Shown piece by piece: positions 2,140 through 57,861 of a DNA stretch of 64,000 nucleotides (position 1 is the first letter of the stretch; every line of letters begins with the position of its first letter). The notes beneath the pieces are model-generated. The model saw nothing but the letters and a program-made list of their open reading frames with translations, did not search any database and was not told the DNA's origin. A program made the position numbers and the translations under genes. This DNA is from Isurus oxyrinchus (Eukaryota): assembly GCA_026770705.1 (NCBI GenBank), contig JANJGN010000049.1:2914001-2978000 (forward strand), given 5' to 3'.

Positions 2140-2980
2140 TGAAAATGGTTGTCCTTTGCGGTTCTTTCTCGTGAGGTGGCGTTTTTTCCAGGTGCATCAC
2201 TCATCATTCATGGCAGCGACCAAATTGCTGGTTTTATAGCTGCTTTTTGTATTCAATGAGTGGTATTTATTTGTGGGTTAGTTTGGCATTTACCACTCCA
2301 GCCAGTGACGTCAGTGCTCAATCTGCATTGTTCTGTCTGGTTATTCGTCAGTCTCACCTTCGATGACTACATATGTGTTTGTTACCCAAATATGAAGTTG
2401 CGATTTTTCTCTAGGAGAAGTGCCAATATGTTCGCTTTTGTGCTTTAAAAAATTGAACAACAATAAACCAGAGGTACATTGTGCATGAATCAGTGAGGGT
2501 AAATAACAAACTGCATCATTTTGAAGTATAGAATTAGACTTCTACGTTTCATTTTCAGGAATAAGAACTGACTAGATCGATCATGTTTTATCCACTTAGT
2601 TCCATTTCTTGTGTTATTTATCTCAAGGTTTTAAATGTTTCATGCATTCAATTCGTGACTGTGAAATCTGCAGGACTCTCTGGGACCAAGGACAACGGGG
2701 AGAATGAGAAAGGGCCAGAGACGCAGAGTCAGACAAATTCCAACATTTTACTCTTCAGGTAGTCTCTTCCCACCAGGGGCAGTATGATTGTAAACATTAT
2801 AATATTAACACACTGCAGTAATTCATGTTTCGCAGCTTATAAGTTAATTACCCCAACTTTAATGCTGAAGGAAGCAGGGCAATGCAGCTGCTCCTGAGCC
2901 GCTGCATCAACATGTGTACTTATGGATACACCCAGTGTAAGTTGCAAAAGGGACTATGGCATGTGCTGGAATGTTCAATG
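2140..2980 (+). pseudogene. Highly decayed GPR139-like GPCR exon-2 relic (copy 0)
   Basis: tttccaggtgcatcactc at ~2186 is identical to the intact gene at ~37852. SVWLFVSLTFDDYICVC matches SAWLTVAFTFDRFVAIC. There is an ICL3-like stretch at ~2670-2755 and a TM7-like gctgcatcaacatgtgtacttatggatacacccagtgtaagtt at ~2901-2943. Many indels. Confidence 0.75.
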
Positions 2981-3880
2981 ACTCTCCTTTACAAATTTAG
3001 AACGTGGAATGCGGGCTTCACTGACAAAGGCAGCATTAATTGCCCCATCGCTTAATGTCCCTGAGACACGTAATTTTAGCTCTGTTTTTCCCTCTCCACA
3101 TGCGTTGCCAGGCCAGCCGGGCTGTTCTACTTTTTGATTCATATTTCCAGCAGCCACAGTTTTTGGTTTTGCACAATGCGGAATAATTTGAGGAAAAGGC
3201 ACTGCTTGATCCTGCCTTGTTGCATGGCAAACATGACAACGTCTAGAACAATCAGAACTGACTTACCAACCAATCACAACACATTAGCTCATGCAGTACA
3301 CCATGTTGTTCCCTTTGAAAATTAATATTCTTGCGTTTGCCCTGATGAGTGCACAACAGAAAGTTTCGACAGCCTCTCTCTTTTCTCAGCAACACTCATG
3401 TTCAGTACTGCCAAGCATCTACCTATATTCCTCCTTGTGTAACTATACACTGTTCTACTCCTTCATACCATTCTGCAAGCTGACCACCAATTGACATTTT
3501 TAATGCATTTGTTGCTGATTATTCATTAACTGGACTGTTTCCCTCCAAACTTGACAGGCAAGGATTGCAGTGCATGTGGTGTGGCCATCACTTGATAGGC
3601 AGGGTTAGCGGAAGTTTTCAGCTGGGAAGTGGCTAACTGTTCCGATATGACACCCGCAATGCACTGTACAGGCCATGGGACACTGCTCGACTTCCCACAC
3701 TTATGTCCTGAACACTACTCAGAATTTTAATTTTGGTTCACCCCATATTTTGTTCCAATTCACCACATTAGATAAAAGTTGCTTCAGATTCTCCTCTATA
3801 AACCCCAGAAACCAAGCTGCCTCTTCAGATAAAGACATCCAACATCTTCAATACCATCCACTCAATCCCACCAACAGCCA

Positions 3881-10279: not shown

Positions 10280-12610
10280 CATTGTTTCCTTAATCTTAAA
10301 ATAATACCGTGGATATTTAATCCCATTTTTTAACTCCTGCCTGAATTTACTGTGTGTCAATGCTTAAATGCACTTGTTGGTGCAAGAACTTAAAAATTGA
10401 GGAGTACTACCTGTTTCTTGGAGAATGAATCTTGGGTCATTGAAATTGGAACCTGAAAAACAATTATTGTTTGTAATTTGAACATAAAAAACGTTTAGAA
10501 CGTACACCATCCATAACAGGATGAAACTGCCCGAAATACGTAAGAGTAACATAATGCACTCGTCCTGTTCTCTAACTCTGGTTCACGCTGATTGGCTCCA
10601 TTGCTGTGGGCCTCGAGTCTCCTTCGGGATCGACTGGCCACTAGAATGTGTCTAACTGTCAGAGCATTCAGTAGTAACAAAAGGAATGATGGAACGCACG
10701 GCGTTGAAATTCGGTCAAGCCAATCATATAGTGTCCGTCCAAGAGAGGTTTAAAATGTTTATTTGATGTTGCACAGCCACTCAACACTGTCAACTGGGAA
10801 CATCGGTTCGTAAGTGAGATAAGACGCAGTGTTTTTGAAACAACTCAAGGCGCAGACTGTTTATATCACTGCCGCTGCCGTTTTCTCTGCAGTATTTTGT
10901 TTTCTGTTTCTGGCAACAAATAGCCACAAACCTATCAAAGGTGAAAGCGACCGTTAACTACACAGAACTCTCTGTGGCAGCAGAAATTAGGATAGAGGTT
11001 ACTGTGCAGCCCGGAGTGGTGGAAAGCACACTGCATCTGTAATATATACCAGCAACCCTGTTTAATAGCACAGCAGTGATAATGACCAGGAGATCCGTCA
11101 CCGCCATGGACACTAGGTTAAGAGTGATGCATCTGGAGAGACCGCATCTTCCTCTGGACAGGATCACAATGAACGCAAAGTTCGCTCTAAGAAAGAGAAA
11201 CAAATATTCAGGAAAATAGGACATTGCTCCCATCAACGGTTTCTTTAATCTTATGCCTTTAGTTTTGAACCATACAAGGGGAGTTTGATAATTCCTAATG
11301 GAGAGATTGATCTGGTAGGAGGTGGACAGTAGCTGAGGAAATTTAACAGGAACAGCTAATGTAAAGGAGCATGGACGAATCGCGGCAATGATTGAGGATC
11401 ATTGGATTGAGAACATACCTTGGAGCTCTACGTACAGTTTCATGAATAAAACCAAAAAAATATCATTCACGAAATGGCAGCAACTGACTGACTGTGAAAT
11501 CATTTTTCAATAAAAATGCTGGTTATATACCCACTTCAGAAAATGTTTTCCCACATATTTCATTATTTCATTTTCGGGTTTGAAATAGCAGTCTGAGAAA
11601 CCTAAACACATATTGTACATGTAGTCAGAATTTCAGAAACTCTGTCCATAGGAGAATGTGTAGTGACCTCTGCCCATGTACTTAATGTCTGGGGTTCTGT
11701 TCGAAGTCAGAATGCCTGGGCCTCTAATTTTAAAAAGCAGAATGTTATGGATGCTGGAAATCTGAAAGAAAAGCCAAAAATTCTGAAAATGATCGACAGG
11801 TGAGCCAGAGCCTGTGGTAAGAAACAGAGTTAAAGTTTTAGATCGATGACGTTTGATCAGGAGCGTCTCAACTTTGTTCACATGTGAAATAACAAATTAG
11901 GCTTTCACAGTCGCATTTCCTTCCTCAGCAACTGTCTCCGGGTTCCCTTCATTCCACATGCATTCCAGCTGAAATCCCACCCTTCCTGTTATGATCACAG
12001 ATATCTCCAAGACATCCAGAACTCCTCAAACCACTGTTGTCGCCACATCCGAAGATGGACTTTCAATTCCTTGTGCCAATACACGCAAGCTCTCAATCTT
12101 CCCATTAAGCAACACGGACTCACACAAGCTCAAAGCTGCCCTTGGCCCTAAGGATTCTTCGCCTCATTCAAAGCTGAAAAAAATAACCTTTCACCTTTCT
12201 TTCAGTTGTGAAGGATTGCAAGTGACAGCTAGTCATGGTTACCAAAACATGTGCGCACTCTTTTTCTGATTCACTAAGCCTCCAAACGATCCATTCCTTG
12301 AATCTCACCCTTTGCTCTTTATTCACAATAGCGTTTTAAATTCCCCTATCTCTGCCTGTTTGCTCTGCCCTCAGGAAACACATCAGCTTCATGCAATTAC
12401 CACCGTTCCTGAATGGCGTTCGATCATAGCTCATTCAACTGAAGATATAGTGAAAGAAAGTCTGGATAACACAGTGATACAAGTCAGCTGCAGTGCAGGC
12501 GACAATGTCCTAAAACAAAAAAGTTGCTCTAATAACTTACCCAGCACACGGACAACACATAGAATAGGATAGTAAGTAGGAAGTACTGGATTGTTTCCCG
12601 GGGAGCGCAT
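10280..12610 (-). pseudogene. GPR139-like class A GPCR pseudogene (copy 1); exon 1 12610..12541, exon 2 11184..~10280
   Basis: Exon 1 MRSPGNNPVLPTYYPILCVVRVL+G|gtaagt. Exon 2 ANFAFIVILSRGRCGLSRCIT..DLL..DRF. In-frame TAG at 10958-60 replaces the conserved Trp, there are frameshifts, and TAA replaces the NPxxY Tyr at 10364-66. Confidence 0.9.
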
Positions 12611-13606
12611 TCTCTGCGAGAAACAAAGTGCTGGAGACAACAGCCACATATCAGCTGCAACTCATTCCTATGACACCTTACTTATACCGAATGTGAATGC
12701 TTCATGAGACAATAACATTGCATCAGCTCAGCGTTAGTCATGGTCACCCAAACAAACAAACCATGGCAGCCAACGTCATAAAACCTTAGCTAAATTATGA
12801 TATAGTTCAATAATGTTACACCATTTAAAGGATAAATAACGCTTTTCTGGCATGTTAAAAATTAAATGTCCACCAGATTTTTTCACGGCATCAAAGGAAC
12901 ATATATTGTTCCCAGGCTCAATCTGTGATAATGTTCGTCTTCAACCATCACATTATCACTGACCACAGTGATAATGGTTGTAATTAGACACATCGACTTG
13001 ACTTCCAGAGCACATGATTCATCCCGCAGTAGGGAGAGCTATAATTGGCAAAATGCAGTCCATTCTGCGGTACATGACTCATAAGCCCGTGAGAGGGCAT
13101 TAAGGCAGGGCATTTGTTGTATTGTGCCACATCAGAGAGGGAACGGCTCCTGATAATTCTCTTGTGACTGGAAGTGGTCAGCCTGCATTGTGTGTGTGAA
13201 ATGAAGACAGAATGATACTGAAATGGCCCGTCCACACCTCCAACGAAGTAATACACAACTTGCAGATGGAAAAAAATGAAGGGATATGAAAACTGTGAAA
13301 CGACGATGGTCATCCGACTCTCCTGAAATCGCTCCATTAGCAAGGAGCATCTTGTGCCGGAGAGGAGGGGAAAAACAGAAGTCAAGCTATATGGCACAGA
13401 GCTGATACACCAGATCACTCATAACACATTGTATTAAATGAATGTTGACTCTCTTCTGTCAACTGAACAAACACAGCATGATGCTGAGTGCAGAACCAAC
13501 AGCACTTACGAGACTTGACACCATTCAGGACAAAGCTGCCCATCATCATGCTTCATTATTCACCCCCACCCCCACCCCGCCCCGGCATTTCCTAATATTT
13601 TTTGGA

Positions 13607-19442: not shown

Positions 19443-21619
19443 ACCGGAAGGATAATGCTTGATAGTGCAGTTAATAACATGAAGTAATGTGATACATTAT
19501 TTTTCCGATATATTTTTGTTTATTTTTTGTGCCCCTTTTAATTTGCTGTTGTTGTAATAATTGCAGGAACGATAGAGTAGCAGATTAATTGGATGATGAT
19601 TTGTCTTTTTCGTGCAACAAATCCTCTGTTACATGTTTATAGACATAGTGGTATGCCTGTGGGGGCACAGCCCAGTGAAAGAGAGCCAAAGCATGAGGAA
19701 AGTAGGTCCTCAAACTTCAAACATTCACCGACACTTAAGGTCCAAACTGTTCCCAGAAGGGTGAGTTGGGTCAATTCACTAAACAGCTAAACTTTGGCAT
19801 CCACTGACAGTCTGAGGTCGAAATCCACATCTCCCACATTAAAACATAAATGCTCAGGTGTAATTGGGGATTCATAGGAATGCATCAGGCCTGAGTCTAA
19901 CGGGCAAGACAACTGGAAACTAACTGACAACTGGCAAAAGCATTGAATGGGCACGGCGTTTATTAAATTTTCTCAAACTCACATTTGGTCAGGATCACAA
20001 AATGAGAAAAGATGTAGCTGGGAGGAAAGTCCGTGTCTGACGTGGATAGAACGAAGATCTATGGTGAACTACAACTTTAAATTAATGTTTAATCTAATTA
20101 TTTTTGTCATTTAACTAATTTAAGAATTAGATGCAGCGAATATTTCACCCCATTCTTTAACTCCTCCCTGAGGTTTTTTTTTTCTGAGGCCCTGCATAAA
20201 TGAACGGATTTATGCAGCTACTCAAGAGCTGAAGCATATATCCATTTTCCTCCAGAATGAATGCAGACTCACTGTAATTTGAACCTGAGAAATAAGTGGC
20301 ATTTGCAACTCGGACGTAGAGGATGGTTATAAAAAACAATAAGTATAAAATGATGAAACTGCCTGAAATGGCTAAGAGTAAAATAGCGAAGCCTCTTTTG
20401 GGCTCTACTGGCCAATAGAATATATTAACGGTCAGAGCATTCAGCAGTAAAATCTGAATGACAGGAAGGCAAGGGGTTAAATTACAGTAAATCCAGTGAA
20501 ATGCAACCCATCCAGCTGAGGTATAGAATGTTGATTTTATACCGCAGAACCAAGGTACATTGTTAATTATGGTCAACGGTTCATGCATAAAATCAAGGAA
20601 AGGATTTTTGATGCAACCCAGGGCGCACACAATCATTATGACTCGGGCCCTGTCCTCTAATTGCAACATTTGATTTTAAACTGGTGGCTGTAAATGCCCA
20701 CAAATTTATCAAAGGTGAAAGCCACCATTAACCAAGCGGTTAATAGCTGCAATGGTTACAACAGAACAAAAACTGCATTCTGACGTGATGGGCAGGAAAC
20801 TCAATGGGAAATAGATACGAGCAATCCGGTTCAATATCACAGTGCTGATAATGAGCAGGAGGTCAGTCACCGCCATAGACACCAGGTAGCAGGTGATGCA
20901 TCTGGAGAGGCCACATCTTCCTCGACATAAGATCGCAATTACTGTTAAGTTAGCTGTAACAGAGGGGGGCAAAGTGACTTTGGGAAAAAAAATGACTATT
21001 AGTCTGGGCGAGAATGAGAAGAAAGAAATTTCCTGTGCCAATGCCCTGAAAAATCATCTGAATTGACAGGTTCTGTTAACATTTTCCAGCTTTGTTACGG
21101 GAAAAGAAAACTAGCCTTTAATCTGAGGGCACTTGTTCTTGTGTTTAAAATAAATATTTTGTTTCAAAATAAGACATGTCAGAAACACCAGAAAGTGGTG
21201 TAAAAAATGAAACGTGAAGGGGAAGAAGAAAACCACGAAACATGTCGAATCCAACACAGGAACATACTATAAATCAAATAAACAAGAATAAATACCACAT
21301 CAGCAAATACCTGCAGACGATATTTAAGGGTTACTGAGCAGCGAACCAACAAAGGTTGTGGCAGCTAATTTGAAAATGGGTTATATATGAGGTTGTAAAT
21401 GGCACATTTCTAATAAACTAGTGTAATATTACTCATTGTTACAAAATTCCGCGTCAACTTGCTCAACATATTTTCAGACAGAAAGGAATGATTGAACAAC
21501 AGGTATTTCCTGAATTTGTGGAACAGATTTATTTTTTCAAGGCTGAACTGATACCACCAAATCCTCTTCCCTATAGCAAGCTGGGATTTCCGTGTTTATC
21601 TGAGCGAGGTCCATGCAGG

Positions 21620-25190: not shown

Positions 25191-25675
25191 TAGGGTAAAT
25201 GTCGTATTTAGTAGGGGAAAATACACTATTATATGCAAAGAAAATCTATAACGGTAAAGGGATTAAACGTCGCAGTTAAATTTGAGAGATTACAACATAA
25301 ATGACGACAACCTATGTCAGTAAAAGCAAGAATTTATATCGTTAAAACAGAGATTTCATGCTGATGGAACAAGCCAGAAAATCAATATTGGAAAGGAGGG
25401 CAATTTGCAGCAATTCAAATGGAGAAATTCTCCAGTTCAAGGAGCTAATATGCTGAGCAGACGTGATACCATGGAATAGTGCCGCTGGTAATTGACAGCA
25501 GTAATGAAGCTAATGATTCCTGTAACTAAAACTAAAACTCAAGTACAATACTTCACCTGAAACCCCGAGAGCTGCAAGGACAGGGTAGTGAATGGCAAAC
25601 AGCAGGCCCTTTGGTGATCCATGCATTTCTGACGGAATCGCTCAAAGCGTTGAGTATTCAGTCAAAGTTTGTCAA

Positions 25676-25712
25676 ATTTATATTCATTTTCAGGCTCCAG
25701 GGAGATGATGAC
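25676..25712 (-). promoter_or_regulatory. Conserved proximal promoter of copy 2 (O/E-like site + TATA)
   Basis: Minus strand reads TCATCATC-TCCCTGGAG (25703..25695) ... TATAAAT (25682..25676), ~50 nt before the ATG. Confidence 0.5.
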
Positions 25713-26899
25713 ATGATTTGCATTTTTTTAACATTTATTGCGCTGAAGTAAACAAACAGATTTTTTGCAGCTGCTGTCGGACCCTTGTTTATTCTTTGAT
25801 GCAATTGAATTTTTTTTCAAGGGATCTCACACGGCTCTAATTGAAATTCTCCTGGGCGGCAGCACAATTCTGGTGACATATTTATTTTCTAAAAAGAAGG
25901 AAAATCCAAATGGGCGCCTGCAATGGTGAAATTGCGCATTAAGCGGGAGGAACTCGGGTCCTGAACCCCTCAAAGCTGAGGGTGAGAGAGTGAGATAAGG
26001 AAATGCTCCTGCACCTGTGATGCCCAGGCCAGTAACCTGTCGATATGGGAGACAAAACCCTGATGATAGATGTCAAAATTTGAATTGAATTAATAATACC
26101 TGGCATTGAAAGCTACTCAGAGGTATTGGCGGCATTAAAGCCATGACCTATTGCTGTAAAATCCTATATGGTTCGCTAATCACTTCCCCTGAGGGAACAA
26201 AACCTGCCACCCTTAGCCTACATGTGACTCTTGACCCACAACACTGCGGCTGACCCTTAATGGCCCTCTTATTTTACCAGAAAGGCGAAAGTATCAAGGG
26301 CAATTAGGGATGAGCAATAAATTCTGATCTTGCTAGCGATGCCAGCAACCGATGAAACGAAAAAGAAAGGAAAGTTGTTTCAGCAGAAGGTATAGCTGAC
26401 GAGCAGTATCATTTACCTAATGGAAAACGCAGCCAAATTCACCTTCCTGGTCATTATTCAGTCCGTGTGACCATGGATCAACACAATGTGGTTCCAAACT
26501 TCTCTGTGACTTTGCACACCCTGTAGCAGAACTGGTTCTGGACTCATTGTGGGCAGATCCATTTAATTACCACTATTTTCGGCGTTCACTGACCAGTTCT
26601 GCATTAGCTCTTTGATTCCGGTCATTTCCTGGTCATTGCTGATGTATTCAATTTGCACAGCCCCAGTTCCTGGTGATCACGCTCTTTTCAGTACATGTGA
26701 ATTTGTTATGACGATAACTCTTTCAACATTGCTGCATTCAGGTCTTGATCACCCTCTTAAAGTTCATTGCAAGCTGGCTAAGGTCGGCATATATGGATTT
26801 GGTGTGCACAAGCTGAAATATTTGCGGATACATTCACTATGTAATGCTTCATCCCAGCAGATTTTCATGCATTAAGGAGCTGGTCTATTTCACCATGCT

Positions 26900-28699: not shown

Positions 28700-31694
28700 C
28701 ATGCCTGAAGACGGAAAGCATTGAAGTCAGAAACAAGGGTTTTTTTCAAGACTGGCATTGCCTGTTATATCTGCTTACGTTGTAGCTGATCAAAACATCC
28801 TTGCTACATTATCCATTGAGGTGCAATGTGATATCCTCCGCCTGCAGGAGACACATACAGGGAGCGAGAACAACTGCCCAAAAATAACAGGAATGTTCCT
28901 GGTTAATGAAAGACCTCATCGACAATATGGCAGTACTGTATTTGTTAGAGCTGGTTCAGTTGTAGAAACCACTTCGAAAACAGAGGAGGACAGCATCGAA
29001 ATTATAACTGTAGAGCTGAGCAAAGTAGTAGTGACCTCAGTGTACAAGCCACCTGGCACAGATATCAGCTTCTCTAACCCTTTACCCAACTGCACAGTAA
29101 TCCACAGATCATCATTGGAGACTTTAATAGCTACAGTACCCAATGGGGGTACAAGGGGTCTAATAGCGATGGAGAAGCAGTAGAAGAACGGATGGACGCT
29201 AACCAGCTTAGCATGATCCTCGATCCGGAAGTACTCGCCCTTTTCCACTGTGCCCGCTGGAAGTGTAGTTATAACCCAGATCTTGCCATTGTCAGCAACG
29301 ACATTGCTGACATCTGCAAGAAGCTTGTCACAGAGACAAAACCACAGACACAACACCGGCCTATTGGTATCTAGGTAATTGCAGCAGTGTTATCAACTGT
29401 CGTACAATTCAAAAGGTGCTTCAGCTTCAAGAAGGCCGATTGGAACGGCTTCATACGAGCACTTGACTGTAAGGTTAACGCATTAAACCATTATCTGAGC
29501 ACTACAACCTGTTTGCAAAAGCTGTTCAGAAAGCAACTAGAAGGAATATCCTCCGAGGTTGTAGAGCACACTACATCTCTGGTCTCACCAAGGAGAATGC
29601 TGAACTCTACTGGGAGTATGCCTCAATGTTTGAATCTGACCCCTTCTCAGAGGATTCAATACCTACCGGTGAGAGGGTAATATTAAGTATCTCCCAAGAG
29701 CGTCAAACCATCTGGGACACCTTGATAGAGACAACAGTTCTTAGAAAAAAACAGCAAGAAGGCATGGTCTCTCATATGCAAACTTGGAGGCAATCCCAAG
29801 AAAGCTGCTCAACATCCAAATGTGCCTGCAAACCAAGTTGCACACCAATTGCTCCTAAATGGAAAAATCAACAAGAAACAACCAAAAGCACAACTAGATA
29901 GGAAGAAGGACAGCAATGACCCTGGATTCACTGGACCATTCACCAAAATGGAACCATTCACCACGCTGTAAAATGGTATATCTACTCTACAACAGGGGAA
30001 AGCAATTGGTCTTGACAACATAGCAATGGAGCAGATAAAGCATTTTGTACAGGAAGCAAAGAAATGACTCCTACAATTGTTTAACCACTGCCTGGCAACA
30101 CACAAGCTACCTAATATTTGACAGAAGGCACATGTAATAGCACTATTAAAGCCCGTAAAAGATCCCTCAGATCCTAAGAATTCTTGGCCAATCTCACTGT
30201 TTTGCCACACCAATAAGCTGTTTGAAAGCCTGATACTCAATAGGATAGCGCCAACTGTAGATGAGAAGATGATTCCAGAGCAAGCAGGTTTCCACCCCGG
30301 CAAATCAACGAGTCAACTGCTCAACCTCACACAGCATATCTAAGATGGTTTTGAGCAAGGGCTGGTAACAGGTGCTGTTTTTGTAGACCTGTCAGCAGCA
30401 TACGATGCAGTGAACCATAGACGTCTCCTCTGCAAGATCCTAGAGATGACAAAAGATATTCACTTATCAGAGCTGTTAGAACGCATGCTTCAGAATCGCT
30501 GGTTCGATGTTGAACTAGGTGGGAAACGCAGCAGATGGCATATTCAGAAGATTGGTCTCCCTCAGGGAAGCGTGCTTGCACCACTGCTGTACAACATCTC
30601 GAATGACCCACCTATAGACGGTGTAACACACCGTTTCATATATGGTAATGATTTATGTGTCACTGCCCAAAGCACTGTTTTAAGACCGTGGAAAAATCGC
30701 TTTCTGTGGCCTTGGAGGGACGAACATCCTACTATGAAGAAAACCAACTTTGCGCAAACCCTTCAAAGACGCAAGTTTGTGCATTCCACCTCAAAAACCG
30801 TGAAGCCAAATGTCAGCTTAAAGTAACCTGATGTGGAGCAATACTGACGCATTTCGAGCACCCAATTTACTTAGGAGTCACCCTTTACAGGTGCCTCACC
30901 TTCAAGCACCACATCGAAAAGACAAAGGCAAAAGTGAGCACATGAAACAACATTCTGAACAAGCTCACTATCACAAAATGGGGAGCAAGCACGAAAACAT
31001 TGCGAACCAGTACACTTATTCTTTGCTATTCTACTGCTAAATACACCTACCCTGCATGGGAAATATCTACTCATGCTAAGAAGATGGATGCCGTTCTGAA
31101 TGCAAGCTGCCGACGTATCACAGGTTGTATAAAATCAACAAACACCAACAGCCTATATATCCTGGCCGGTATCCCCCCCACTCATATAAGAAGAAAGAAA
31201 GAAAGCAAGAAAGAGCGACTTCGTCAAACATCAGAAGAGAGGCACCCTCTACATGGTCATACACCTACAACCAGCCACCTAAAGTCAAGGAAGAGCTTCA
31301 TGAACAGTATTGTTCCATTACAATCAATCCGACCTGAAGCCCGCATCACCTTGTGGAAACATCGACACTCCAGTCTCGAACAACCCCCAGCGATGGAAAT
31401 TGTACCGGATGAAAGCCTTCCGCAAGGGGCTAACTGCAATAGGGCAACCTGGAAGTGCCTTAATAGGCTTAGGACTGGCGTAGGTCGTTCAAAGGCAAAT
31501 GGGGATATACAGCCAGCTCGACAACTTGTGAATGTGGAACTGAACCACAGACTGTGCAACATCTCCTGCAATACCTACCGCTACGGGAACCCTGCACTGT
31601 TACAGAGCTTGCCGAATTCAACAACAGGCACAAAAATGTGTCCAGATCTGGCTGGGCCATGCACAGACTGTCCGTAGACACAATAAGTAGAAGT
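28700..31694 (+). mobile_element. Near full-length decayed Vingi/Ingi-like non-LTR retrotransposon (APE endonuclease + RT)
   Basis: LQETH, TSVYKPPG and IIGDFN (APE); QAGF, VDLSAAYD, GLPQGSVLAP and FIYGND (RT, YADD degraded); RTSTLILCYS..P.W..S.H, WKCLNRLRTGVGR; 3' tail gacacaataagtagaag. Multiple stops and frameshifts. Clade assignment is from motif recall. Confidence 0.8.
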
Positions 31695-35010: not shown

Positions 35011-35397
35011 TGCACAATAATTGCTTTCCATATGTGCGGTGATCACACGGACTGAAAAAATGATTTGGTTGGGGTTTTGACTGTGTTAATTTTTCGGACT
35101 GGAATATCTCTGATCAGTTCTCTTTTGTGCTGAGACCGCGTCACTCAGCACTAAGGAGCTTGAACCCGCTAATTCATAATGTCCAACGTTCACTTTAATC
35201 ATTGCAACTGCTTTTAAAGCTTTTTATTACCGTTCATGGACAAATAAACATGACATCGTTAGAAAGCCTCAGCTATTTCAGTATTAAACTGATCTCTTAA
35301 AAAAAATCATCCCATCAAAAGACAAGCATACACCTGGTAACAGCTGCAATTATATATTCTTTTCAATCAATATAATTAATTAAAAATAATAATGCAT

Positions 35398-35434
35398 CTA
35401 ATTATGTCCCTGGAGCCTGGCATTTAGCATAAAT
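35398..35434 (+). promoter_or_regulatory. Proximal promoter: homeodomain site + O/E(EBF)-like site + TATA-like box
   Basis: TAATTA 35399-35404, TCCCTGGAG 35407-35415, CATAAAT 35428-35434; similar arrangement in paralogues. Confidence 0.55.
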
Positions 35435-35484
35435 GTGACAGTTTTGCAGAATAGTAGAGAATGCGCTCGAAACTTCTGTCAGAA

Positions 35485-35554
35485 ATGCACGGAGCACCAA
35501 AAGGTCTGGCTTTTGCCATTTTCTATCCTTTCCTGGCAGCTGTCGGGATTCCAG
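35485..35554 (+). CDS. Exon 1 of intact GPR139-like class A GPCR (copy 3)
   Basis: MHGAPKGLAFAIFYPFLAAVGIP+G, donor gtgaag at 35555. Homologous 70-nt exons occur in three paralogues. The in-frame upstream ATG at 35461 is not conserved in copy 4. Confidence 0.85.
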
Positions 35555-36805: not shown

Positions 36806-37806
36806 TAAATTAGTATTATATTCAATACCCACTCTCTGTGAAGCTGAACATTAATCCACGGAACATAAGCCAGGATGATGCATTATAGGAAGAGCTTTTC
36901 TCTGATTAAGATCCCCTCTTTTGCCACTCCATTTGGTTCAAATCGAACTGGCGATTCTTTATTCTGTCATAGAGTGTGGTGGAATTGGCAAGGAAAGTGT
37001 TTCTTCTCTATCCCTAATTATCCTTGAACCAATTGGCTTATCAGACCATCATATAGGGCAGTCAATCGCATTGCGGTGAGTCTGCAGTCACATGTGCAGA
37101 CCAAACCAAGTAATGGTAGATGCCATTCTAGTGATCCCAATGAGGTTGTATGATAAACAACAATAATTATTGCATCATTATCGGAAGTAGCTTTCAATTA
37201 CAGATTTCTTATTTAATTAATTCTTCCCGGATTATTTGCCCAGTGATATAATTACTTTGCCACTATCTGCTGGTTGACTACATAAGCAGGCGGCCGGTGA
37301 TTTAACTTGTCTTCGCCAACATGCCCTCGCAAATTAGGGATACGATAATTGTACGTTCACTTCTCGGTGATGCTTTCGAACATGATTATTGCCGTGGATT
37401 CGAGATGTGAGTATTTTTACATATGTTGATCGGACGAGGACGCTCTAGGCCCTTAGTGGGATGTGACCTTTGAGAAGTGCATGTTTTTGTATGTCTTTGA
37501 TTGAACTAACTTCCGATGGCTCCTTGTTTTCCATTATCTTCCATTTTATTATTGTTCACTCTGATGTCTTTACGCCACCTTATTGTGAATAAGGATGATA
37601 ATTTTACTTGCAGAAACAGTGCCCGGAGAAGGAGCCGTAGTTTCCAACTCAATATCACGGATAAAGATACAGATATCAATGAAATTGCTGCAACGCCAAT
37701 GGTTTTGTTTGATGTCGGTTTAATAACGTTTCCTTCCTCGCTGTGTCACACACATACGTTCTCCAAATTTCTTCATTCTCTCTCTGCCTCTCTGTCTGTG
37801 TTCCAG

Positions 37807-38717
37807 CTAATTTGGTGGCCATTGCTATTCTCTCCCGAGGAAGGTGTGGTCTTTCCAGGTGCATCACTCGGTACCTGGTAGTCATGGCAATGGCGGATCT
37901 CCTGGTCATTATTACCGGCGTGATCTTAAACAGGATTGTTGGCATCTATTTCCCAGTGAGTTTCTTGTCCATCACGCCGTTATGCAGCCTTCGCGCCGTA
38001 CTGAACTCTGCAACATTTGGCACTTCTGCCTGGTTAACAGTCGCTTTTACCTTTGATCGATTTGTGGCCATTTGCTGCCAAAAGCTGAAAATAAAATATT
38101 GCACAGAGAAGACGGCGACGTACGTTATATGTGTAGTTTGTACAGTGAATTGTTTCAAATCTTCGTTCTTGTATTTTATATATGAGCCCATGTACATAAG
38201 TAACAATATTCCCTGGTTCTGCAGCGTAGAAATTGCTTTTTATACATCACCTGCATGGGCTGCATATGACCTGATTCTTCACATTTTAATGCCTTGTCTC
38301 GCATTCATTCTAATCTTACTGCTCAATGCTCAGACCGTCAAACGCATTCTAGAGGCCAGTAGAGCCCGCAGGAGACTCCGGACCCAGAGAGATGGAGAGA
38401 ATCAGAGTGACCCAGAAATGGAGAACAGGAGAAGGTCCATCGTCTTACTATTCTGTATCTCGGGCAGCTTCATCCTGTTGTGGATTTGGTTTCTAATTAA
38501 TTGTCTCTATGTCAGAATTGCGAGAGTCACGTATTTCTCTGGTTCAGATTTCAATGGGCTAAATTTTATTCTGGAGGAAACCGGAATAATGCTTCAGCTT
38601 TTGAGTTCCTGCATCAACCCGTTTATTTATGCAGGGACCCAGAGTAAGTTCAGGGAGGATTTAAAGAATGCGCTGAAATTACCATGGATTCGCATTGTAA
38701 AATTTATTCAACAATAG
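37807..38717 (+). CDS. Exon 2 of intact GPR139/GPR142-like class A GPCR (326 aa spliced)
   Basis: Polypyrimidine tract + ttccag acceptor; the phase-1 splice gives P-A-N-L. Seven hydrophobic segments in the spliced protein, with ADLL, TSAWLTVAFTFDRFVAIC and MLQLLSSCINPFIY. Open to TAG; resembles GPR139 (GLPANILT, TSIWITVPLTIDRY). Confidence 0.92.
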
Positions 38718-47593: not shown

Positions 47594-47626
47594 CTAATTA
47601 TCTCCCTGGTGCCATCAGGTATAAAT
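47594..47626 (+). promoter_or_regulatory. Proximal promoter of copy 4: homeodomain + O/E-like + TATA
   Basis: TAATTA 47595-47600, TCCCTGGTG 47603-47611, TATAAAT 47620-47626. Confidence 0.55.
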
Positions 47627-47675: not shown

Positions 47676-50600
47676 ATGCATGGATTACCAAAAGGCCTGC
47701 TCTTTGCCATTTACTGTCCCGCCATTGCAGCTATCGGGGTTCCAGGTAAAGCTAGTAAGTAGCTGCATGAATTATTGGTGAGCTATATCAGTGCTCCCAT
47801 TTTAGCAGTAGCGCATCTCCATGTAACCGATGTTGTTTTCCAATCTAATGGAATATATTTTCTGTTTTCTTTTCAATTAACTGCCTTAATTTCTCTTCCG
47901 CTATCATTCTTCCACTTTAATGGTATTATCTCTCCATTTGACACAATATTTTCTTCAATTTACCTGCATAATTCCGCAGTATTAATGCTATAATTCCTCC
48001 CCTTCAACAGTCTTACTTAATCCTTTTACCAGCGAAGTATATTTACATTACCTGCATATTTTCAACCCTTTAACTGATTTTCTCGTGTTAAGCATCATTT
48101 TATCACATGAATTGAATAATTTGTCCCAGTTATCACGCCATTTCGAGATGAGTACAATTGGATTGCTCTTTTGGACGTTACTGTGTTTAAATTAATACAA
48201 TATTATCATGATATGAAGGCAATTCTATTGCATGTTTGACAATGCTATTGTGGGGGGATTGCCATTAAGTTATTCTGGTGCAAAGAGTGTTCAATTGTGA
48301 CATTGGTACTGTTCCTGTGGCTACATTTTCAAACCGTGATAACAGTGTAATTGGAGTTCTAATGTGCCATTGTCTGTGACAGAGAGAGGAGTATTACAGT
48401 ATCATCCCTGTGAACACGTAGATCAACTGAGCTACAGACATTGTGTTTGTGAGTGAATTAAGTCGCCGTTTTCACTGTGTGATTGCAACTCAGTTGTATT
48501 GTTGCCACTGTTACTGTGGGCGAATTATGATAGCGTGGTCACTGTGAGTGTAGATCTATTGACTTCGATAATGGGGGGATAATTCCCACATGTACTTCAT
48601 TGATTGAGGTGTGAACACTTTCTGACTGGGTGGTCTTGTGGTGTAGCGGGTAGCGTCTCTGCCTGTGAAGCAGATATTCTGGATTCAAGCCAGGGCCTGA
48701 TGATCTCGGGAGGTGCGGACATAAATGGCTAAATAGGTTGAAAATTAAGCTGCAACTCCTTCCAACACATAGATGACAGCCGCTAAGCCCAGTAGAGGCT
48801 CCTGGTCAGCCAGAAGATGTGGCAGTTGTGGCGCAAGAACCTCCTGACGTTAAAAGGCTGCGCATTCACCTTCTTCCCACGGGATGTACTTCATCGCCAT
48901 CGCCCTCATCGCTTCAACGGGCAATCACTCAACAAATTCCTGAATGATTTCATTGAAAGGAAGCTATTGGGCAGTGAAATGCTCAAAGATGTATAAGTAA
49001 AGTAAAGAATTGTCCATGGATGACTAATTGGCATATGTCTCTCACTCACAGAGCATGGTGTTTCTGCACTCAGTCTACCCCACTCACTTCTTCATCCGGC
49101 TCTCCTCTTCCTCATGCACTATTGCTGTTTGTTCTAAGTTGATGACTGCTGCAGTGGGATTCCCTTCTGTTCCTAGCACGCGGCAATGTCTCGGAATTTC
49201 TCAGCATTAATTGAGGACCCGTAAGTGGCTGTACCCTCTCGGAAAATATATAATATTTTTATTCCAAATATTCGTCCTTGGCTGCACATGGCTGTTATAC
49301 GGACTGTGGAGTGCAGGACGGGGGAAGTGTTGCATCGTGGAAGATTATTTCTCTAAAGGAGACCACGTCAACTGCCAATGGTTCTATTAGTTGAGATCGA
49401 CACCCAAAATTATCAGGTGATTATCAGGTGAAGAGTTCCAACATACTCTGCATCCTGCATAAAATGTCCACCGCATAGTCGGAAGTGCTAATGTTCCAAA
49501 CGCTTCATTCTGTTTGAGAGTATGTTTTACACTGTTCATTACAGACATTTTAAACAGTGAATAAGTTCACAGAATTTCATTTGTAGGACCAACTTCTGAT
49601 CCTCAGTGAGACATAATCCGTGTTCTTGTTAGATTTCACACTTGTTGGATGCTTTATTTGTCTACTTCAATAGTTTCTATAGCTCTTCGATGATGGGTTT
49701 TCATTTTTGTGTGTTCCATTATTCTGTGTTATAGACAAGTTTTGATTTCCTTTTCATTCTCTGTTAAGTTTCATGAGAATATATTTTATTCGCAAACCAT
49801 TGGCTCAATTTCTTTTGAAACAGAATCATTATTTCAAACCCAAAATAACCGCCCATAGAATGAAAGATAATTTCCAACTGAGTATCAAGTCTCGAAGCTA
49901 TACGTTTCACACACAACTGTAAAAAGAATGATTTTGTTTGAAGACAAGCAAGGCATTTTCCTGTTCTCAACCTAACTCACACACATTGTCTCTGTCTCTC
50001 TCTCTCTCCCTTTCTCTATTGCAGCTAATTTGGCAGTGATCATGATCCTGCCTCGAAGAAGATGCGGCCTCTCTGGATGTATCACTTATGACGTGGTGTC
50101 CGTGGTGATGGATCTCCTGGTCATAGTTACAGCTGTAATATTGAACCGAATTGCTGGGATTTATTTCCCATTCAGCTTCCTCTCTGTCACACCAATGTGC
50201 AGTCTCCTTTCTGCACTAACTTTTGAAGCTATAGACAGTTCTGCCTGCTTAACAGTTGCTTTCACCTTTGATCGATTTGTGGTCATTTGTTGCAGGGAGC
50301 TGACACGAAAATATTGCACCGAGAGGATGGAAGCATGAGTAAAAGGAATCGTATCCGCACTGAGCTGTGTAAAAAATGCTTTCTTGTATTTTATATAACA
50401 ACCGAGATACACAATTAAAAATATACCCTGGTTCTGCACTGTAAAAATAATATTTTACAAGTCGCCAGCATGCGCCACATATGACTGGATTTGTTTCATT
50501 GTAACCCTTTTTCTCCCATTCATTCTGATCTTATTCCTAATGCTCTGACTGCCAGGTACATTCTAGCGGCCAATAGTGCCCGCAGGAGACTCTGTATCCA

Positions 50601-50935
50601 GAGTATTGGACAGAATCAGAGTGACCCAGAGATGGAGAAGCGGACAAAGTCCATACTTTTACTTTTTGCCATCTCGGGAAGTTTCATTCTTTTATATTTG
50701 CTCTTTTTTGCAACTATCCTCTATGTCCGAATTGCGAAAGTAATCTATTTCTCAGGATTCACTTCTACTCAAGGAACATTTACTCTTGAGGAAAAAAAGA
50801 TTTATGCTTTAGTTATTGTCCTCCGGTATCAACCCGTTTATTTATTCAGGGACCCAGAGTAAATTCAGGGCCGAGTTAAAGAATGGGCTGAAATACCCAC
50901 TGAACATTTTGATTAAATTATTTAAAATTGGATAG
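47676..50935 (+). pseudogene. GPR139-like class A GPCR pseudogene (copy 4); exon 1 47676..47745, exon 2 50025..50935
   Basis: Exon 1 MHGLPKGLLFAIYCPAIAAIGVP+G|gtaaag; acceptor ttgcag|CTAAT. DRF and INPFIY are present. Stops at 50336-38 and 50396-98; frameshifts at ~50535 and ~50795. Confidence 0.9.
48630..48820 (+). mobile_element. tRNA-derived SINE in intron of copy 4
   Basis: A box tggtgtagcgg, B box ggattcaagcc. Confidence 0.55.
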
Positions 50936-51445: not shown

Positions 51446-54400
51446 CTGCATGCCTCATTGTCTCTCTGTCTTTCTGCATGCCTCTGTGTTTGTTTGCTTT
51501 TTTGTCTTTATTGTGTTATTTATTTATTTTTCATGAGATTTGAGCATTCCTGTCGAGGGCACCACTCCGTTCCCATCTCTGATTTTCCCTATCATGCCAG
51601 TGTTCTGTCTGTGCTTTTCACCTTCATTGTCTCTTCTATTGTTCACGAATAGGAATGCACAGCCTCTTCTATTCGTTCCAGACTTCCGCTGCAGCACCTG
51701 CATCTGTGGCCTTGCTGATGACTCCAGAGACACGTCATCAGTCTGAAGCTGAGCTGAACTCAACAGCCTTCCGAGTGTGAGTGGCCTCAACTGTCAAAGC
51801 CCCTCTCAGTGCTTTAATGAGTCTGCCGTTTCTTCTCGGAATTGCGACCCTGCTACTGCAGTCATTCCACCAACCACCAAACTGAGAGTACCTGCTCTGC
51901 TGCATGGCGGTGGGGTGATGTGACGTGAACCCTGTGAGATCTCTTTTTCTTCCTCAGTGTTGGAGGAATGTTTCCCAGTCAACACAGTCTGGCTGCTCTC
52001 TTTCATGCTCTCCAAGATAAAGAAGAGAGATGAGAGAACAGCATTTCCATCTGACTACTCATCATTTGGAGCTCTGTCTGACCAGTCGAGCACATGTGGG
52101 CATGAAGTATTGTGCTCCATCCTTTGGGCATTCATTACTCAGGGGTTTCACACCCGCCACCACCATGAGTGAATATCCACCCTGCTTCCAGCTCCAGAAC
52201 CTCTCTCTCCCCGCTTTGTGGGTGGCCATGCCTGGCACACCACATTCAGTTCTTGCCGTGTCCTATATGTTTTGAGCTACCTTTTCCTGCAGGCATGTAG
52301 CCTCCCATTCGTGATCGCCCATCAAAAACTGATTAAATGATCAAAATGGTGGATATGTAACATCCTATCATGGTACCAATGGCGTGGCTCCTGCATTTCC
52401 ATATTCAGCGCAGAGCAAGAATCACCAATGCCTCATTGGTTGTTTTCACAGAGAGGCTTACAGTCCTCCGGCAGCCAATGTTGATATCTGGGAATCCTTT
52501 GAATGGGCAGCCCCTTCATTGTTCCTCGGATTTATGGTTGAAGTTTTATTACTATTCAATTGCCTTGACAGCAAGCTTCGGCCCATCGATACTCTTTCAT
52601 CATTGCAGCCACGTAAGTACATGGGATCATCAGAAAGCTTCTCAAGTCCTCCGCTATCGCCACGGTGCTCAGTTTGGCGAAGCAATCTCCTCCAGCTGCC
52701 CCCCGGGTTAACAGAACATTCCTCTGGGTCTAATGGCCTGATAGAGAACGACCAGGGGCGCATCATTGAGCCTATGACGCAATCCTTCCCCTGCCATCTT
52801 CTATAACGCTACCAGTTGTGTTTCTTCCGATGCTGCTGCCTTTGAAAGTCCTGCTGGCTGCACTTAAACATGGAGCGAGCCTTGTGTTCGACGGTACTTC
52901 CAGCCACAAACGAGGCTTAACTGCCCGAGTCCCCCACATTGCAAGTGTTAATTAAATGGCCTGAGAAGATCACGTTCCCACTTCTACACCTGTGCCTCCC
53001 CTTTGTGGCCACTGACAAAACCCTGGCCATCACAACATGAAGCACCTTTTCTCAGCAGGGGACTGGGTGATTGTGATTTCGATCAAATTTCGCTTTTGCT
53101 TTCGTGCCCCTCATCCAACACTATCAGACAAAGAGAATATTTCTAGAAATGAAAAATCAGATTCCATGTTTAAATATAATTCTGAAATTTTTACCTGCGA
53201 CTTTCTGAATCTGTATTTCTCTTTTAACTCTGTGATTAGATTACAATGCGTTTCAATAACGTGAAAATACTCCCCTTGGTGTCAGGCGCATGCTGAGTTA
53301 AATGGCTTTCTATTTTAATTTCCAAAAATCTAATCGAGTCTCTTGCATGCATTACAAGGTATAAAATGTGCCACTCGCCAACACTATCGAATGCCACTGT
53401 TCAAGTTATCCTTTGTATGTGGAGATGAATCTTGGAAAAGCAATACAGTGTGTCCAGAGGACAGACTGGTGAATTAGAAATTTCGGTTTAACGCCCGCGG
53501 GGAAAATGTCCAATCGCACTGGTAATGCTTCAGACAAGGTTAGGTTATACATCTTGTGATAGTTTCAGGTCGCTGCCCGATCTGAGGCTCCATTGGTGAG
53601 TTCCTACCTAGCGAGGTCATCCCCTGGTCAGTCTGCGGAAAGGAATTCACCCAGTCCCCTAAACTTCTGAGACACGAACTGTTCCTTTCAGGAGATTGTT
53701 TTTGCGATTGTATGACTTCTTAAAGAGCTACTTGAGTTGTTTGTAGAACATAAAGAGAATGTACAACATTCTAGTATTTGTTAGCTGAAGACAGTTTAGA
53801 GACCCGACCCTTTGGGACACACTTTTTGGGAACACTAAACGAGTGAAATTGCAATTGAGCAGCATCTGAGAACTCAAGAAACCATAACAACTGCTGCATC
53901 TACATCAGGCAAAGAGATGATGCAGAAAGAAAGATTCCATACTTGTAAATAATTCCTGAGGCTTCTTTAGGCACCTGTCGATTCTGCATTTTTTCTATAA
54001 CTCCATTACAGCAGTGACAACACTTCAAAAGTACTTACTTGGCTGTTCAGCAATTTGAATTTCTGAGTTAATGAACGGCGCTATGTAAATGTAATTTTTG
54101 TTTTCTATCAGTCACTATAAATAAACAAATGGATGGAATTATGAAATCTAGCTACACCTTCCAGTCTCTGGCTGTCTGTGTCTCAGTGGGTGTATTTGTG
54201 TATTAGCTGTCTGCACCTCTCTCTCCCTTTCGGCAGATCACTGTCATTCTGTCTGTGTCCCTAACTCTGTTTTTCCCACTCGCTTTTCTTCTCTTTCCTT
54301 GATGTCCCCAAGTGATGCAAACTCTCCCTTTGCTATTAGTCATTTAACAAAGGATTGTTTCCAGCTCGATTTGTGCTCTGACGCTTCTGTAAGAAAACCA

Positions 54401-54929
54401 TAATGGTGCAATAGGTTAGTTCAGCTTTAATACACTGATGAAGAACTATATCTATTACTGGTGATTCTGTCTTCAGCTCGCTGATGAACAAGGAATTATT
54501 TTGACGTGTAAAATTGCATTTATATTTCTTGTGTAAATTTTACAGAACGAAACAGATGGTTAAATATGCAAGAGGACTATGTGTCTGTGGTTTTTACCTC
54601 AGTGAACTCCGTTAAACACTAAAACTTAAGCAAAAGATTTGGCAAATTTATTGCAGGCGGGTGGGCTAACGGGAGTATGGACATTAAGCTGCTTTTATGT
54701 AGGGTCTTGTTAACAATGTATTTGCGGTACTCCATTCAGCTTTGTTCTCCTTACCTAGGGAGGGATATAATTACCATAAGTTGCTGCAACTGGGTACACT
54801 GAAGTCAGTAAAAGGCACAGAGGGCAATCCGGCCATCCGGACTATGCTGGGCGTACGCAGAGCAATTCCATCAGTTTAATCTCCCCATTCTATCCCGTAA
54901 CCCTGTAATTTGTTTCTTCCTTAAGTGTC

Positions 54930-55310
54930 CAACATCATTATAATCATCATTAGTATTGTCATCCAAATCATCATCAGCACCATCATATTCAGCACCCTCA
55001 TACACATCATCCTCATCATCATCATTATTATTATCCTCACCCACATGAACATCACCATCATCATCAGCATCGCTACTATTATCATCATCCTGAGCATCAA
55101 CATTATCATTACCATTATCATCCTTATCACTGTCGTCTTCTTGCTCTTCTTCTTCTTCGTCTTGCTCTTCTTCTTCTTCTTCGTCTTGCTCTTCCTCTTC
55201 TTCTTCATCTTGCTCTTCTTCTTCTTCTTGCTCTTCATCTTCTTCTTATTATTATTATTAGTAGTAGTAGTATTACTATTATCATCATTATTCTTTCTTC
55301 TTCTTCCTCT
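54930..55310 (+). repeat. Compound trinucleotide repeat (ATC, TTC, TTA, GTA)
   Basis: Directly visible; includes a higher-order ttgctcttcttcttc unit. Confidence 0.92.
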
Positions 55311-55699
55311 CCATGTAGTCACCCACTTCTCTTGCACTGCCACTGCCCTTATGTCTCTCACATCTGTATCTTTCCATCTGATCTTGATCATTTATTTTCC
55401 CTTTGTTTCCCACAGTCCAACCAACAACACTAAGGTCACCATGCGTCCTCTTGCCCAACGTGACTGCACAATTTCAACGATGACCATGTGAACTCAGTAT
55501 CTTCTTGCCTTTTTTCTCCAATTCCTCCAGAATCTGCAGTGACCTCTGATCCTGTACTTCCTTATCACTTCAAACAACCATCTCCACACCTGCAACACAG
55601 TCGTTTTTCCTCACTTCCTGAAGTTACCTAGTATTTCGCAGGACATAAAAAGTAAGAGTCTTCAATTTCCTATATTCTATACTCAACCTTGTTCTCAAT

Positions 55700-57850
55700 C
55701 ATTTTCTTCCTGACATTTGCCATACGCAAACGTTTTATTTTCATCTTAATGTATATCTATTTTTTTCTTATGGGTATTCTGGCCTTGCTTGATGAAATTC
55801 CTATTTGATAAATAGTACCTTCACACTCCCTGAAATACTCATCTTTGAAGGTATCCAATTGTTCAGTTAGCGTTTCTCCCGACAACCTTTGGCTCCAACT
55901 TACACCATTCAAATCACTGCTTACCCAATTGAAGCTGACTTTCCCCCAGTTAATTAGTCTTACTCTGGATTATTCAGTGTTCGTTTCGAAAGTCAGCCGA
56001 AATCTTACTATACTGTGAACATTCTCCATTAAACATTCTCCCACTGACACTTGATCCAATTGCCCACCTCATTTCCAACAACCGGATCAAGCAGCAACAT
56101 ATTTCTGAATGCAGCAGAAACGAATGCTGTAGAAAATAATACCTGAAGAAAGTCTGGAAATAATTGCCCACCATCCCACACCAGAGCCCCTCCCCCGCAA
56201 ACCCAGTTTAATTAAAGCTACTACTATCCCAGCATATATTCGGATGTTTAAAGTTCACCTTTATATCTGCCCTATAAATTCCTTGATAATTTATTCCGAT
56301 ACACCCTTTCCACCCTTCCCAATGGTGTCTCATTGACCAATGGAATTGTACCTTTATTTTTTTTGTTACCTTGATCTAACCAAATAGATGCTGTAATGAC
56401 CAGCCCAGGACAGTCTCTTTCGCCAGCACTGCAATGTTCCCGCCGCAGTCCTGGCCACTCTGCTAGTTCAACTCCCATCGCTTCTTGGTTCAACTGCTCT
56501 CTGAAAGCTCGCCTTCCTTATGACTTCTTGGCTAGCTGAATAATCGCCCTTTTTTTGGACACTCTGGTCGTTCGAAAAATCGCCACTTTCCTGGCTCATT
56601 TTGCTGAACTCAAGCCACTTTCATGGATCATCCATCCCCGTAACATTTCGTAGTATTTTTTCCCCAGTGACAGTGATTGCTGAAGTTGCACCTGCAACTT
56701 TGCCCCATGAATTTCTTAGATTATGAGTCTCCTCTACTATAATGGCAGATGCAAAATATCTGTTCCAGTTTTCTGTCATTTCCTTGTTATTGAGTCAGTC
56801 TGGTCCACGAGGGAACGCAACACTTACTTTAGCTCAGCACTTCATTTTTAGATGTTTGTAGATGTCTTCCTTCTTTTCTCTGTGTACATTTCTTGATAGT
56901 TAAATGCAATATTACAAATTATTGAACTTGATCATGTTATTATTTTCAACGTTTGCTGCTTTCCTTGTTTCCCCCAGTCTTCTGGCTGACCACTCAACTT
57001 CACAGCATTGCCCACCTTTACATTACATCTTATATTGTCTTTAACTTGCTTAGTTTGTTGTGTTTTGTGGTTTTCTCGTGGATTTTTCTTCTCTTTTTCA
57101 GTGGAATACAACTTTATTGAGAATTATTCAATCCCTTTCCAATGTCTGTCACCACTACTCCCCCTTCTTATTTCCGAATCCACTCTAGCCTTCATAACAT
57201 TCTAATTGCGTTTTTAAAAAATTTATATTTAAGACGCTCGTTTCGGACCATTGTTTTTCACCTTCAAATTAACTGTGAAACCTTGCCATTTTATGATCAG
57301 CCTTGTCCTTGGGATCATGCATATGTTGTCAAAACAATATTTCATTACAAACGTGCATTAAATCAGTATGGTGAAGGTGGGCTGACATTGGATAAAAATC
57401 TTCCAATCCAACATTGGAGAAACACTGGAAAGAGAAATAACCGGTTGCACTTTTTGGCATCTTCAAAATAACAAAATGTGCTACTTCATAACAGAAACAT
57501 TGGAAAGCAAACATGGTAATTAAATAGGTTCGATTCACTAAATACACAACTATGCAAAAATCAAATACAGCGAATCCAATTATTCCAAGCATAATTGCTT
57601 TTGTTCTGAAATAATGCAGTTTTTTTTAATCGATCAATATCTTAGCCTCTGTAATGATCCAAGCTGATGCTATTTGCGGCTACATTTTCTGTTCCCAGAA
57701 AAATATTAGGAACACTCTGAGCCATTTTTGAATTCCAACCCATGTATTGCTTCACAGCAAAATTTGTACCTATGCACAGTAGCTCCAAGTCCTCGTTTCT
57801 TTAAACATCACAGACCCCAATTAAATTGAAGGATTTTTAAATGCCGCAAC
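55700..57850 (-). mobile_element. Decayed CR1 endonuclease-region fragments
   Basis: Antisense similarity to the CR1 EN region at 45.4-46.2 kb. Confidence 0.5.
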
Positions 57851-57861
57851 AGCCCTCATTT

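Follow-up and report, generated by a model that had tools for sequence, protein, structure and literature searches.

A putative Lhx2/Ebf-type composite in the proximal promoters of tandem shark GPCR genes and its possible role in olfactory expression

The window analysed here is a stretch of 64,000 nt from the shark Isurus oxyrinchus (GCA_026770705.1, JANJGN010000049.1:2,914,001-2,978,000, forward strand) and all coordinates given below are positions within it. The genes in question are tandem two-exon class A GPCR genes, and 326 amino acids without internal stops are found in copy 3 alone. Exon 1 of this copy (35485..35554, + strand) provides the ATG, a short N-terminus and the first half of TM1 and is followed by a GT donor, and joined to exon 2 (37807..38717, +) it encodes an intact 326-aa class A GPCR (7tm_1). 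The other four of the five copies are broken, a point absent from the preliminary description. Copy 4 (exon 1 at 47676..47745, exon 2 at 50025..50935 with an approximate end, both +) is a pseudogene with in-frame stops and frameshifts, copy 2 (exon 1 at 25557..25626, exon 2 at 20110..20953, end approximate, both -) is a pseudogene with frameshifts, stops and an internal deletion, and copy 1 (divergent exon 1 at 12541..12610, exon 2 at 10290..11184, end approximate, both -) is a pseudogene with stops and frameshifts. Copy 0 (~2190..3000, +) is a heavily decayed exon-2 remnant, for which neither an exon 1 nor a promoter was detected in positions 1-2200 of the window. The intron of copy 3 is 2,252 nt long, has GT-AG borders and lies within TM1, and its position is identical in copies 1, 2 and 4. 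The divergence of the copies is old, with four-fold sites being identical to copy 3 at 38 of 68 and 33 of 57 positions (56-58%). Introns and far-upstream DNA are hardly alignable between the copies; the proximal 200 bp can be aligned throughout. An upstream in-frame ATG is located 8 codons 5' of the canonical start of copy 3 (35461-35484, +), near the presumed transcription start; copies 2 and 4 have no ATG of this type, and a similar 8-aa extension is present in the database models P0084, P0106 and P0119.

The DNA around the genes holds several repeats. A broken LINE-like reverse-transcriptase remnant (RVT_1, E 3e-4) lies between copies 2 and 3 (30446-31677, +), and a long trinucleotide microsatellite of ATC and TCT arrays at 54921-55491 gives rise to spurious ORFs on both strands. 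Positions 57681-58283 and 60520-61117 (+) form a direct duplicate pair of 67% identity, possibly old LTRs, with RNase H-like retroelement remnants (~59100-59400, minus) inside the pair. That these duplicates are decayed V2R exons is unsupported, as a six-frame Pfam search of 51-64 kb revealed no class C domain. An Rfam search gave zero matches.

Upstream of the first exons we examined a motif that the preliminary description had presented as a homeodomain plus O/E promoter shared by the paralogues, and its sequences and coordinates proved correct for copies 3 (35398-35434) and 4 (47594-47626) as well as, on the minus strand, for copies 2 (25676-25712) and 1 (12680-12715). The composite of copy 3 (35398..35416, +, 87 nt 5' of the ATG) consists of a homeodomain site at 35399-35404, a 2-nt spacer and an O/E site starting at 35407, and a cluster of additional TAAT/ATTA motifs (35373..35393) is found upstream of it, of which copy 4 has a part and copy 2 none. 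In copy 4 (47594..47612, +) the homeodomain site is intact and the 3' half of the O/E site reads GTG, so that both copies show TAATTA followed 8 nt on by TCCC-NN-GRG (copy 3) or by the same with a GTG ending (copy 4). The element of copy 2 (25694..25711, -) has an intact O/E site (25695-25703) and a degenerate homeodomain half, and no TAAT occurs on either strand within 200 upstream bases. The putative promoter of copy 1 (12680..12717, -) contains an O/E-like pyrimidine/purine pattern (12700-12709) and no clear homeodomain site, its one TAAT being distant (-187). As described earlier, a TATA-like box lies about 50 nt before the ATG, namely at -57..-51 in copy 3 (35428..35434, +) and at -56..-50 in copies 4 (47620..47626, +) and 2 (25676..25682, -); in copy 1 it is located at -76..-70 (12680-12686, minus). 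Thus, an intact homeodomain site beside an O/E site is present in two of four promoters (copies 3 and 4) and TCCCTGG in three of four, with the strict consensus TCCCNNGRG being satisfied in copies 3 and 2 and not in copy 4. The promoter motif of the tandem GPCR genes is real and its best version is found at the sole intact gene, copy 3. As a motif common to the paralogues it holds in full for copies 3 and 4, but copy 2 retains the O/E half only and copy 1 is unconvincing. Copy 1 was rejected as a fourth composite, since a profile built from copies 2-4 failed to recognise its promoter and its score (see below) was low. The same profile detected no additional orphan promoters in the window.

The arrangement of the two sites is sharper than had been claimed. 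According to the available part of PMC5608512, the mouse Lhx2/Ebf composite has a rigid spacing and is enriched in OR enhancers compared to OR promoters and to genome-wide co-bound sites, and an Lhx2-Ebf fusion protein binds it less well after a 2-bp insertion. The Ebf half-site of the Sfaktiria EMSA probe begins 8 nt past the T of TAAT (PMC5608512 supplement 7), and for HD2 of the J element we likewise obtained an offset of 8 by reversing the stated mutations on a mutagenesis primer in the part of PMC7804114 at hand. Orientation and 8-nt offset in copies 3 and 4 agree with those of these two functionally tested mouse elements, and when offsets from 6 to 20 were scanned in the window matches appeared at offset 8 only, these being copies 3 and 4. 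Also, the OMP Ebf probe carries TCCCTGG as the shark promoters do (PMC5608512 supplement 7). The assignment as a composite was judged on these two mouse examples and a simple 14-point consensus score and not on the published HOMER matrix.

The likeness to known systems extends further. Mouse OR enhancers (Greek Islands, J element HD2) and TAAR enhancers share the step from TAATKR to Ebf at offset 8 in the same orientation, and additional homeodomain sites are close by in mouse OR enhancers as in the shark promoters. Mouse OR and V1R proximal promoters are likewise AT-rich and have homeodomain as well as O/E sites close to the presumed TSS. In contrast to the mouse enhancers, the shark composite forms part of the proximal promoter of each gene, 30 nt from the TATA box and in front of GPCRs other than ORs, and unlike in the mouse OR/V1R setting the promoter is immediately followed by the first coding exon, with an intron in TM1 interrupting the CDS. 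The pair had been described as typical of OR promoters and enhancers; mouse OR promoters are poorer in the rigid composite, which in the available text of PMC5608512 marks enhancers more than promoters, and are usually TATA-less (PMC5318403, as far as accessible), whereas the shark promoters carry a TATA box. Both points count against an olfactory reading of the shark promoters. Taken together, the element is a real composite of the Lhx2/Ebf type that is probably functional, and its setting is new.

One alternative is that the motif is a chance resemblance within an AT-rich core promoter that was inherited by duplication, so that it would tell nothing about the tissue and would represent a generic TATA promoter or the site of another factor. 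The copies are not independent: given their common ancestry, the motif counts as roughly one event and not three, and many motif classes would have been open to such post-hoc noticing. Shared ancestry and post-hoc noticing make the rarity of the motif suggestive rather than conclusive. The O/E consensus TCCCNNGRG alone shows no enrichment (11 occurrences in the window compared to an expectation of 8.39, and 26 of 100 shuffles reach 11), which fits such a chance origin, and we dropped it as evidence. The count of TAATTANNTCCCTGG (7 versus 1.85) was also set aside as circular because this pattern had been derived from the copies themselves. With the mouse geometry, about 0.05 composites are expected per 64 kb window in 40 Markov simulations, which give a crude estimate, and the same simulations yielded 0.3-5.7 per window for looser composite patterns. 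On the 14-point score copies 3 and 4 reach 12, a value attained by 5 of 127,964 positions; copy 2 scores 10 (94 positions at 10 or more) and copy 1 at most 9. The other three positions with a score of 12 are non-promoter sites (37237-37254, 48875-48892 and 52120-52137, all -), which again is in line with chance, but the corresponding expectation is at most about 0.004 per 150-bp stretch, which argues against it. The sites 37237-37254 and 48875-48892 fall within intron sequence of copies 3 and 4, respectively, and another high-scoring composite-like site is located at 26177-26194 (+). These extra sites could be due to chance or could be enhancers of the cluster.

Conservation bears on the same question. 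Of the 18 composite positions 13 are invariant among copies 2-4, compared to 66 of 175 in the remaining -200..-1 flank (Fisher p=0.006 for the named position), but if the position is left unspecified a best-window permutation results in p=0.105 for 18 nt and p=0.38 for 9 nt, of which the former is compatible with a chance resemblance. The level of conservation equals that of coding exon 1 (52 of 73 positions invariant) while the four-fold sites are at 56-58%, which speaks against chance. Six of seven TATA box positions are also invariant, and the longest stretches without any difference between these copies are TCCCTGG and ATAAAT. We also searched for read-through of the promoter into annotated proteins among 337 family members, 15 of which have at least 8 aa and 9 at least 30 aa before the canonical Met. 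Two of the nine models with an extension of at least 30 aa are apparently colinear through the TATA box. Independent support comes from the horn-shark protein XP_067870107.1 (67% identical), whose N-terminal extension is an in-frame read-through of its promoter. Six of seven composite codons agree with copy 3 in this extension, compared to five of 19 codons outside composite and TATA box (p=0.02; synonymous positions are invisible in such a comparison), and so do 3 of 4 TATA codons; the spacing between composite, TATA box and ATG is identical. Retention of the composite in this second species counts against a chance resemblance, which we consider unlikely overall. The zebra-shark protein XP_059497707.1, which has a broken C-terminus, keeps the TATA box and a homeodomain-like stretch and lacks the O/E half. 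Three renderings of the composite were present in one of the 337 family proteins, and no further colinear N-terminally extended models were obtained, as a targeted search returned the query only and a wider search added none. The expectation of a motif better conserved than its flanks is thus borne out at the named position and in the horn shark, but neither by the scan nor in the zebra shark.

The two halves of the composite are not equally well kept, since the O/E core is found in three of four copies and invariant at 8 of 9 positions and the homeodomain half in two of four and at 4 of 6. This difference would suit an expansion of immune or barrier receptors, in which EBF1 would act through the O/E site in B-lineage cells, with the TAAT either being incidental or belonging to another homeodomain factor. 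Immune GPCR clusters do exist in vertebrates (MRGPR, FPR) and Lhx2 is expressed in pre-B cells. Moreover, an OR clade has been reported as immune-expressed (title of PMC13113109). An immune role would, however, not account for the fact that the intact gene and the horn-shark member both show precisely the geometry of the olfactory composite, and we regard it as quite improbable.

To which receptors the genes belong can be stated more closely. The sole Pfam match of copy 3 exon 2 is 7tm_1, and a protein search with this exon gave 2,339 matches with a best identity of 74%. The best 120 of these include 119 named elasmobranch proteins, most of them labelled 'probable GPR139', and comprise 82 horn-shark clusters on 5 contigs, to which a wider search added 10 clusters and a sixth contig. 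The horn-shark family therefore has at least 92 clusters (90% identity) on 6 contigs, and more distant members are found in skates, rays and catsharks. The GPR139 label is a loose one because the best match to a solved structure, which is indeed GPR139, reaches only 33.5 bits (E 2.8e-7) compared to more than 400 bits within the family. This weak similarity together with the multi-copy, clustered state in elasmobranchs, in which the family differs from GPR139, argues against orthology to GPR139/142, and family members are probably not GPR139 orthologues. On sequence grounds the shark genes are not ORs either, so that the homeodomain and O/E pair is supported as a pair but does not lie in front of ORs. 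No OR sequences were among 16 PDB matches, and all 9 of 9 proteins match 7tm_1 and none the OR (E up to 1), V1R, TAS2R or class C Pfam models, which sets the family apart from these receptors. OR coding regions are characteristically intronless. The coding sequence of copy 3, by comparison, contains the GT-AG intron in TM1.

In a midpoint-rooted tree of 32 chosen rows of about 290, which came with long-branch warnings and was built without a GPR139/142 outgroup, copy 3 is placed in a shark clade of 13 rows (100/99). This clade is nested in a clade of 24 rows with elasmobranch genes and two salamander genes (100/99) and is separate from relatives in coelacanth, teleosts and crocodile (~30% identity). 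The P0230 cluster (Pleurodeles, Ambystoma, Lissotriton) falls along with the elasmobranch expansion (100/99, on a long branch). The grouping of salamander and elasmobranch genes suggests a receptor lineage that dates back to the jawed-vertebrate ancestor and may have survived at low copy number in some amphibians. The accessible part of PMC6504862 describes orphan 'GPR210' sets close to GPR139/142 in coelacanth and fishes; like the shark family, GPR139/GPR142 and 'GPR210' are class A 7tm_1 receptors, and the coelacanth/teleost/crocodile relatives form a neighbouring clade that may correspond to these sets.

Several features of the family resemble those of chemoreceptors. OR, TAAR, V1R and V2R families all show tandem clusters, birth and death, many pseudogenes and a variable pocket, and the same is seen here: a large clustered repertoire of 92 horn-shark clusters on 6 contigs, with 4 of 5 window copies being broken. 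A short N-terminus is shared with OR, TAAR and V1R. Among 123 full-length members the 28 positions of the predicted pocket have a mean variability of 1.38 bits compared to 1.00 overall and to 0.31 bits in the 34 positions of the intracellular core, a contrast that is inflated because the core set takes in universally conserved residues. Pocket variability is therefore modest, only suggestive and not diagnostic of chemoreception. The tryptophan usual in TM4 and the proline usual in TM6 appear to be missing from the family alignment, which makes the helix numbering in TM4 and TM6 approximate. The alignment also shows about 10 residues before TM1 and a first intracellular loop that is basic, contains a cysteine and is strongly conserved.

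Since the composite is a signature of receptor control in vertebrate olfactory neurons, expression in olfactory sensory neurons appears to be most likely. We propose cooperative binding of the composite by a homeodomain protein of the Lhx2 type together with a dimer of Ebf (O/E), about 30 nt upstream of the TATA box and TBP, with transcription presumably starting some 25-30 nt before the ATG, so that the element would be a compact proximal promoter active in these neurons. That the Lhx2/Ebf composite promoter drives expression in olfactory neurons, and that the genes thus represent an unrecognised and very large shark chemoreceptor family, is the reading that we moderately favour. TAAR enhancers carry the composite, with mouse OR and TAAR enhancers being active in the zebrafish nose (PMC8213717, in part), and V1R promoters contain O/E sites according to the available text of PMC3247230, so that the olfactory code is not restricted to ORs. 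This matters because olfactory neurons of the catshark are described as nearly all microvillous, ciliated OSNs being absent and ORs not being expressed in the nose (PMC10116579, accessible part). The shark neurons expressing the family would then be microvillous (TRPC2-positive, Go-positive). In the part of PMC11979771 available to us, the top 50 catshark genes for 'brain and olfactory epithelium' include no GPCR, which counts against the olfactory reading as does the lack of ciliated OSNs and of nasal OR expression in this species, although V2Rs are absent from the top 50 as well. In the whale-shark supplement GPR139/142 is mentioned in none of the 12 files examined out of 24.

Alternatively, the composite may be functional in Ebf- and homeodomain-positive cells outside the olfactory system, and the receptors would be neuromodulatory or extra-nasal ones like GPR139, with brain, retina, sensory ganglia and solitary chemosensory or taste cells as possible sites. 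The nearest relative with a solved structure, GPR139, is a receptor of the CNS (PMC5103216, in part), many Lhx2/Ebf co-bound sites lie outside OR clusters (n=3805 in the accessible PMC5608512 text), and shark ORs themselves are reported to be expressed outside the nose in the parts of PMC10116579 and PMC11979771 consulted. On the other hand, the rigid composite is enriched in OR enhancers relative to co-bound sites across the genome, and some 90 clustered paralogues with many pseudogenes would be unusual for a CNS receptor, so that we judge a non-olfactory site to be unlikely.

Despite the large olfactory organs of cartilaginous fishes, the reported number of their olfactory receptors is only about 10-50, which has been explained as a trade-off of sensitivity over discrimination (PMC10116579, part of the text); they are also described as relatively GPCR-poor in the accessible part of PMC8455134. 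A full-text search of the literature, in which few subscription papers were covered, yielded no description of the shark family as chemosensory or of its promoter, and the family is not treated in the available parts of PMC12294341, PMC13113109 and PMC8455134. If the olfactory reading is true, at least 92 horn-shark clusters with an olfactory-type promoter would overturn the accepted number of shark olfactory receptors and would constitute a new receptor class for vertebrate olfaction. We consider it an even call whether the genomes of some elasmobranch species each contain about 100 genes of an olfactory receptor family that stems from a GPR139/142-related lineage of peptide and amino-acid receptors, is larger than OR, TAAR, V1R and V2R combined and was recruited to the nose through one Lhx2/Ebf composite promoter per gene. 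It would also mean that the Lhx2/Ebf grammar operates in proximal promoters of microvillous neurons and that this rigid grammar is older than the split of sharks and mammals and is used by an unrelated receptor family. As L-Trp and L-Phe activate GPR139 according to the accessible part of PMC5103216, small and water-soluble compounds, for instance amino acids or peptides, would be a plausible guess for the ligands of the shark receptors.

The family also shows similarity to nematode Srw/Srx chemoreceptor profiles, which is weak and below the cut-off, and to FMRFamide-receptor-like clusters. In invertebrates chemoreceptors have been recruited from this receptor clade.
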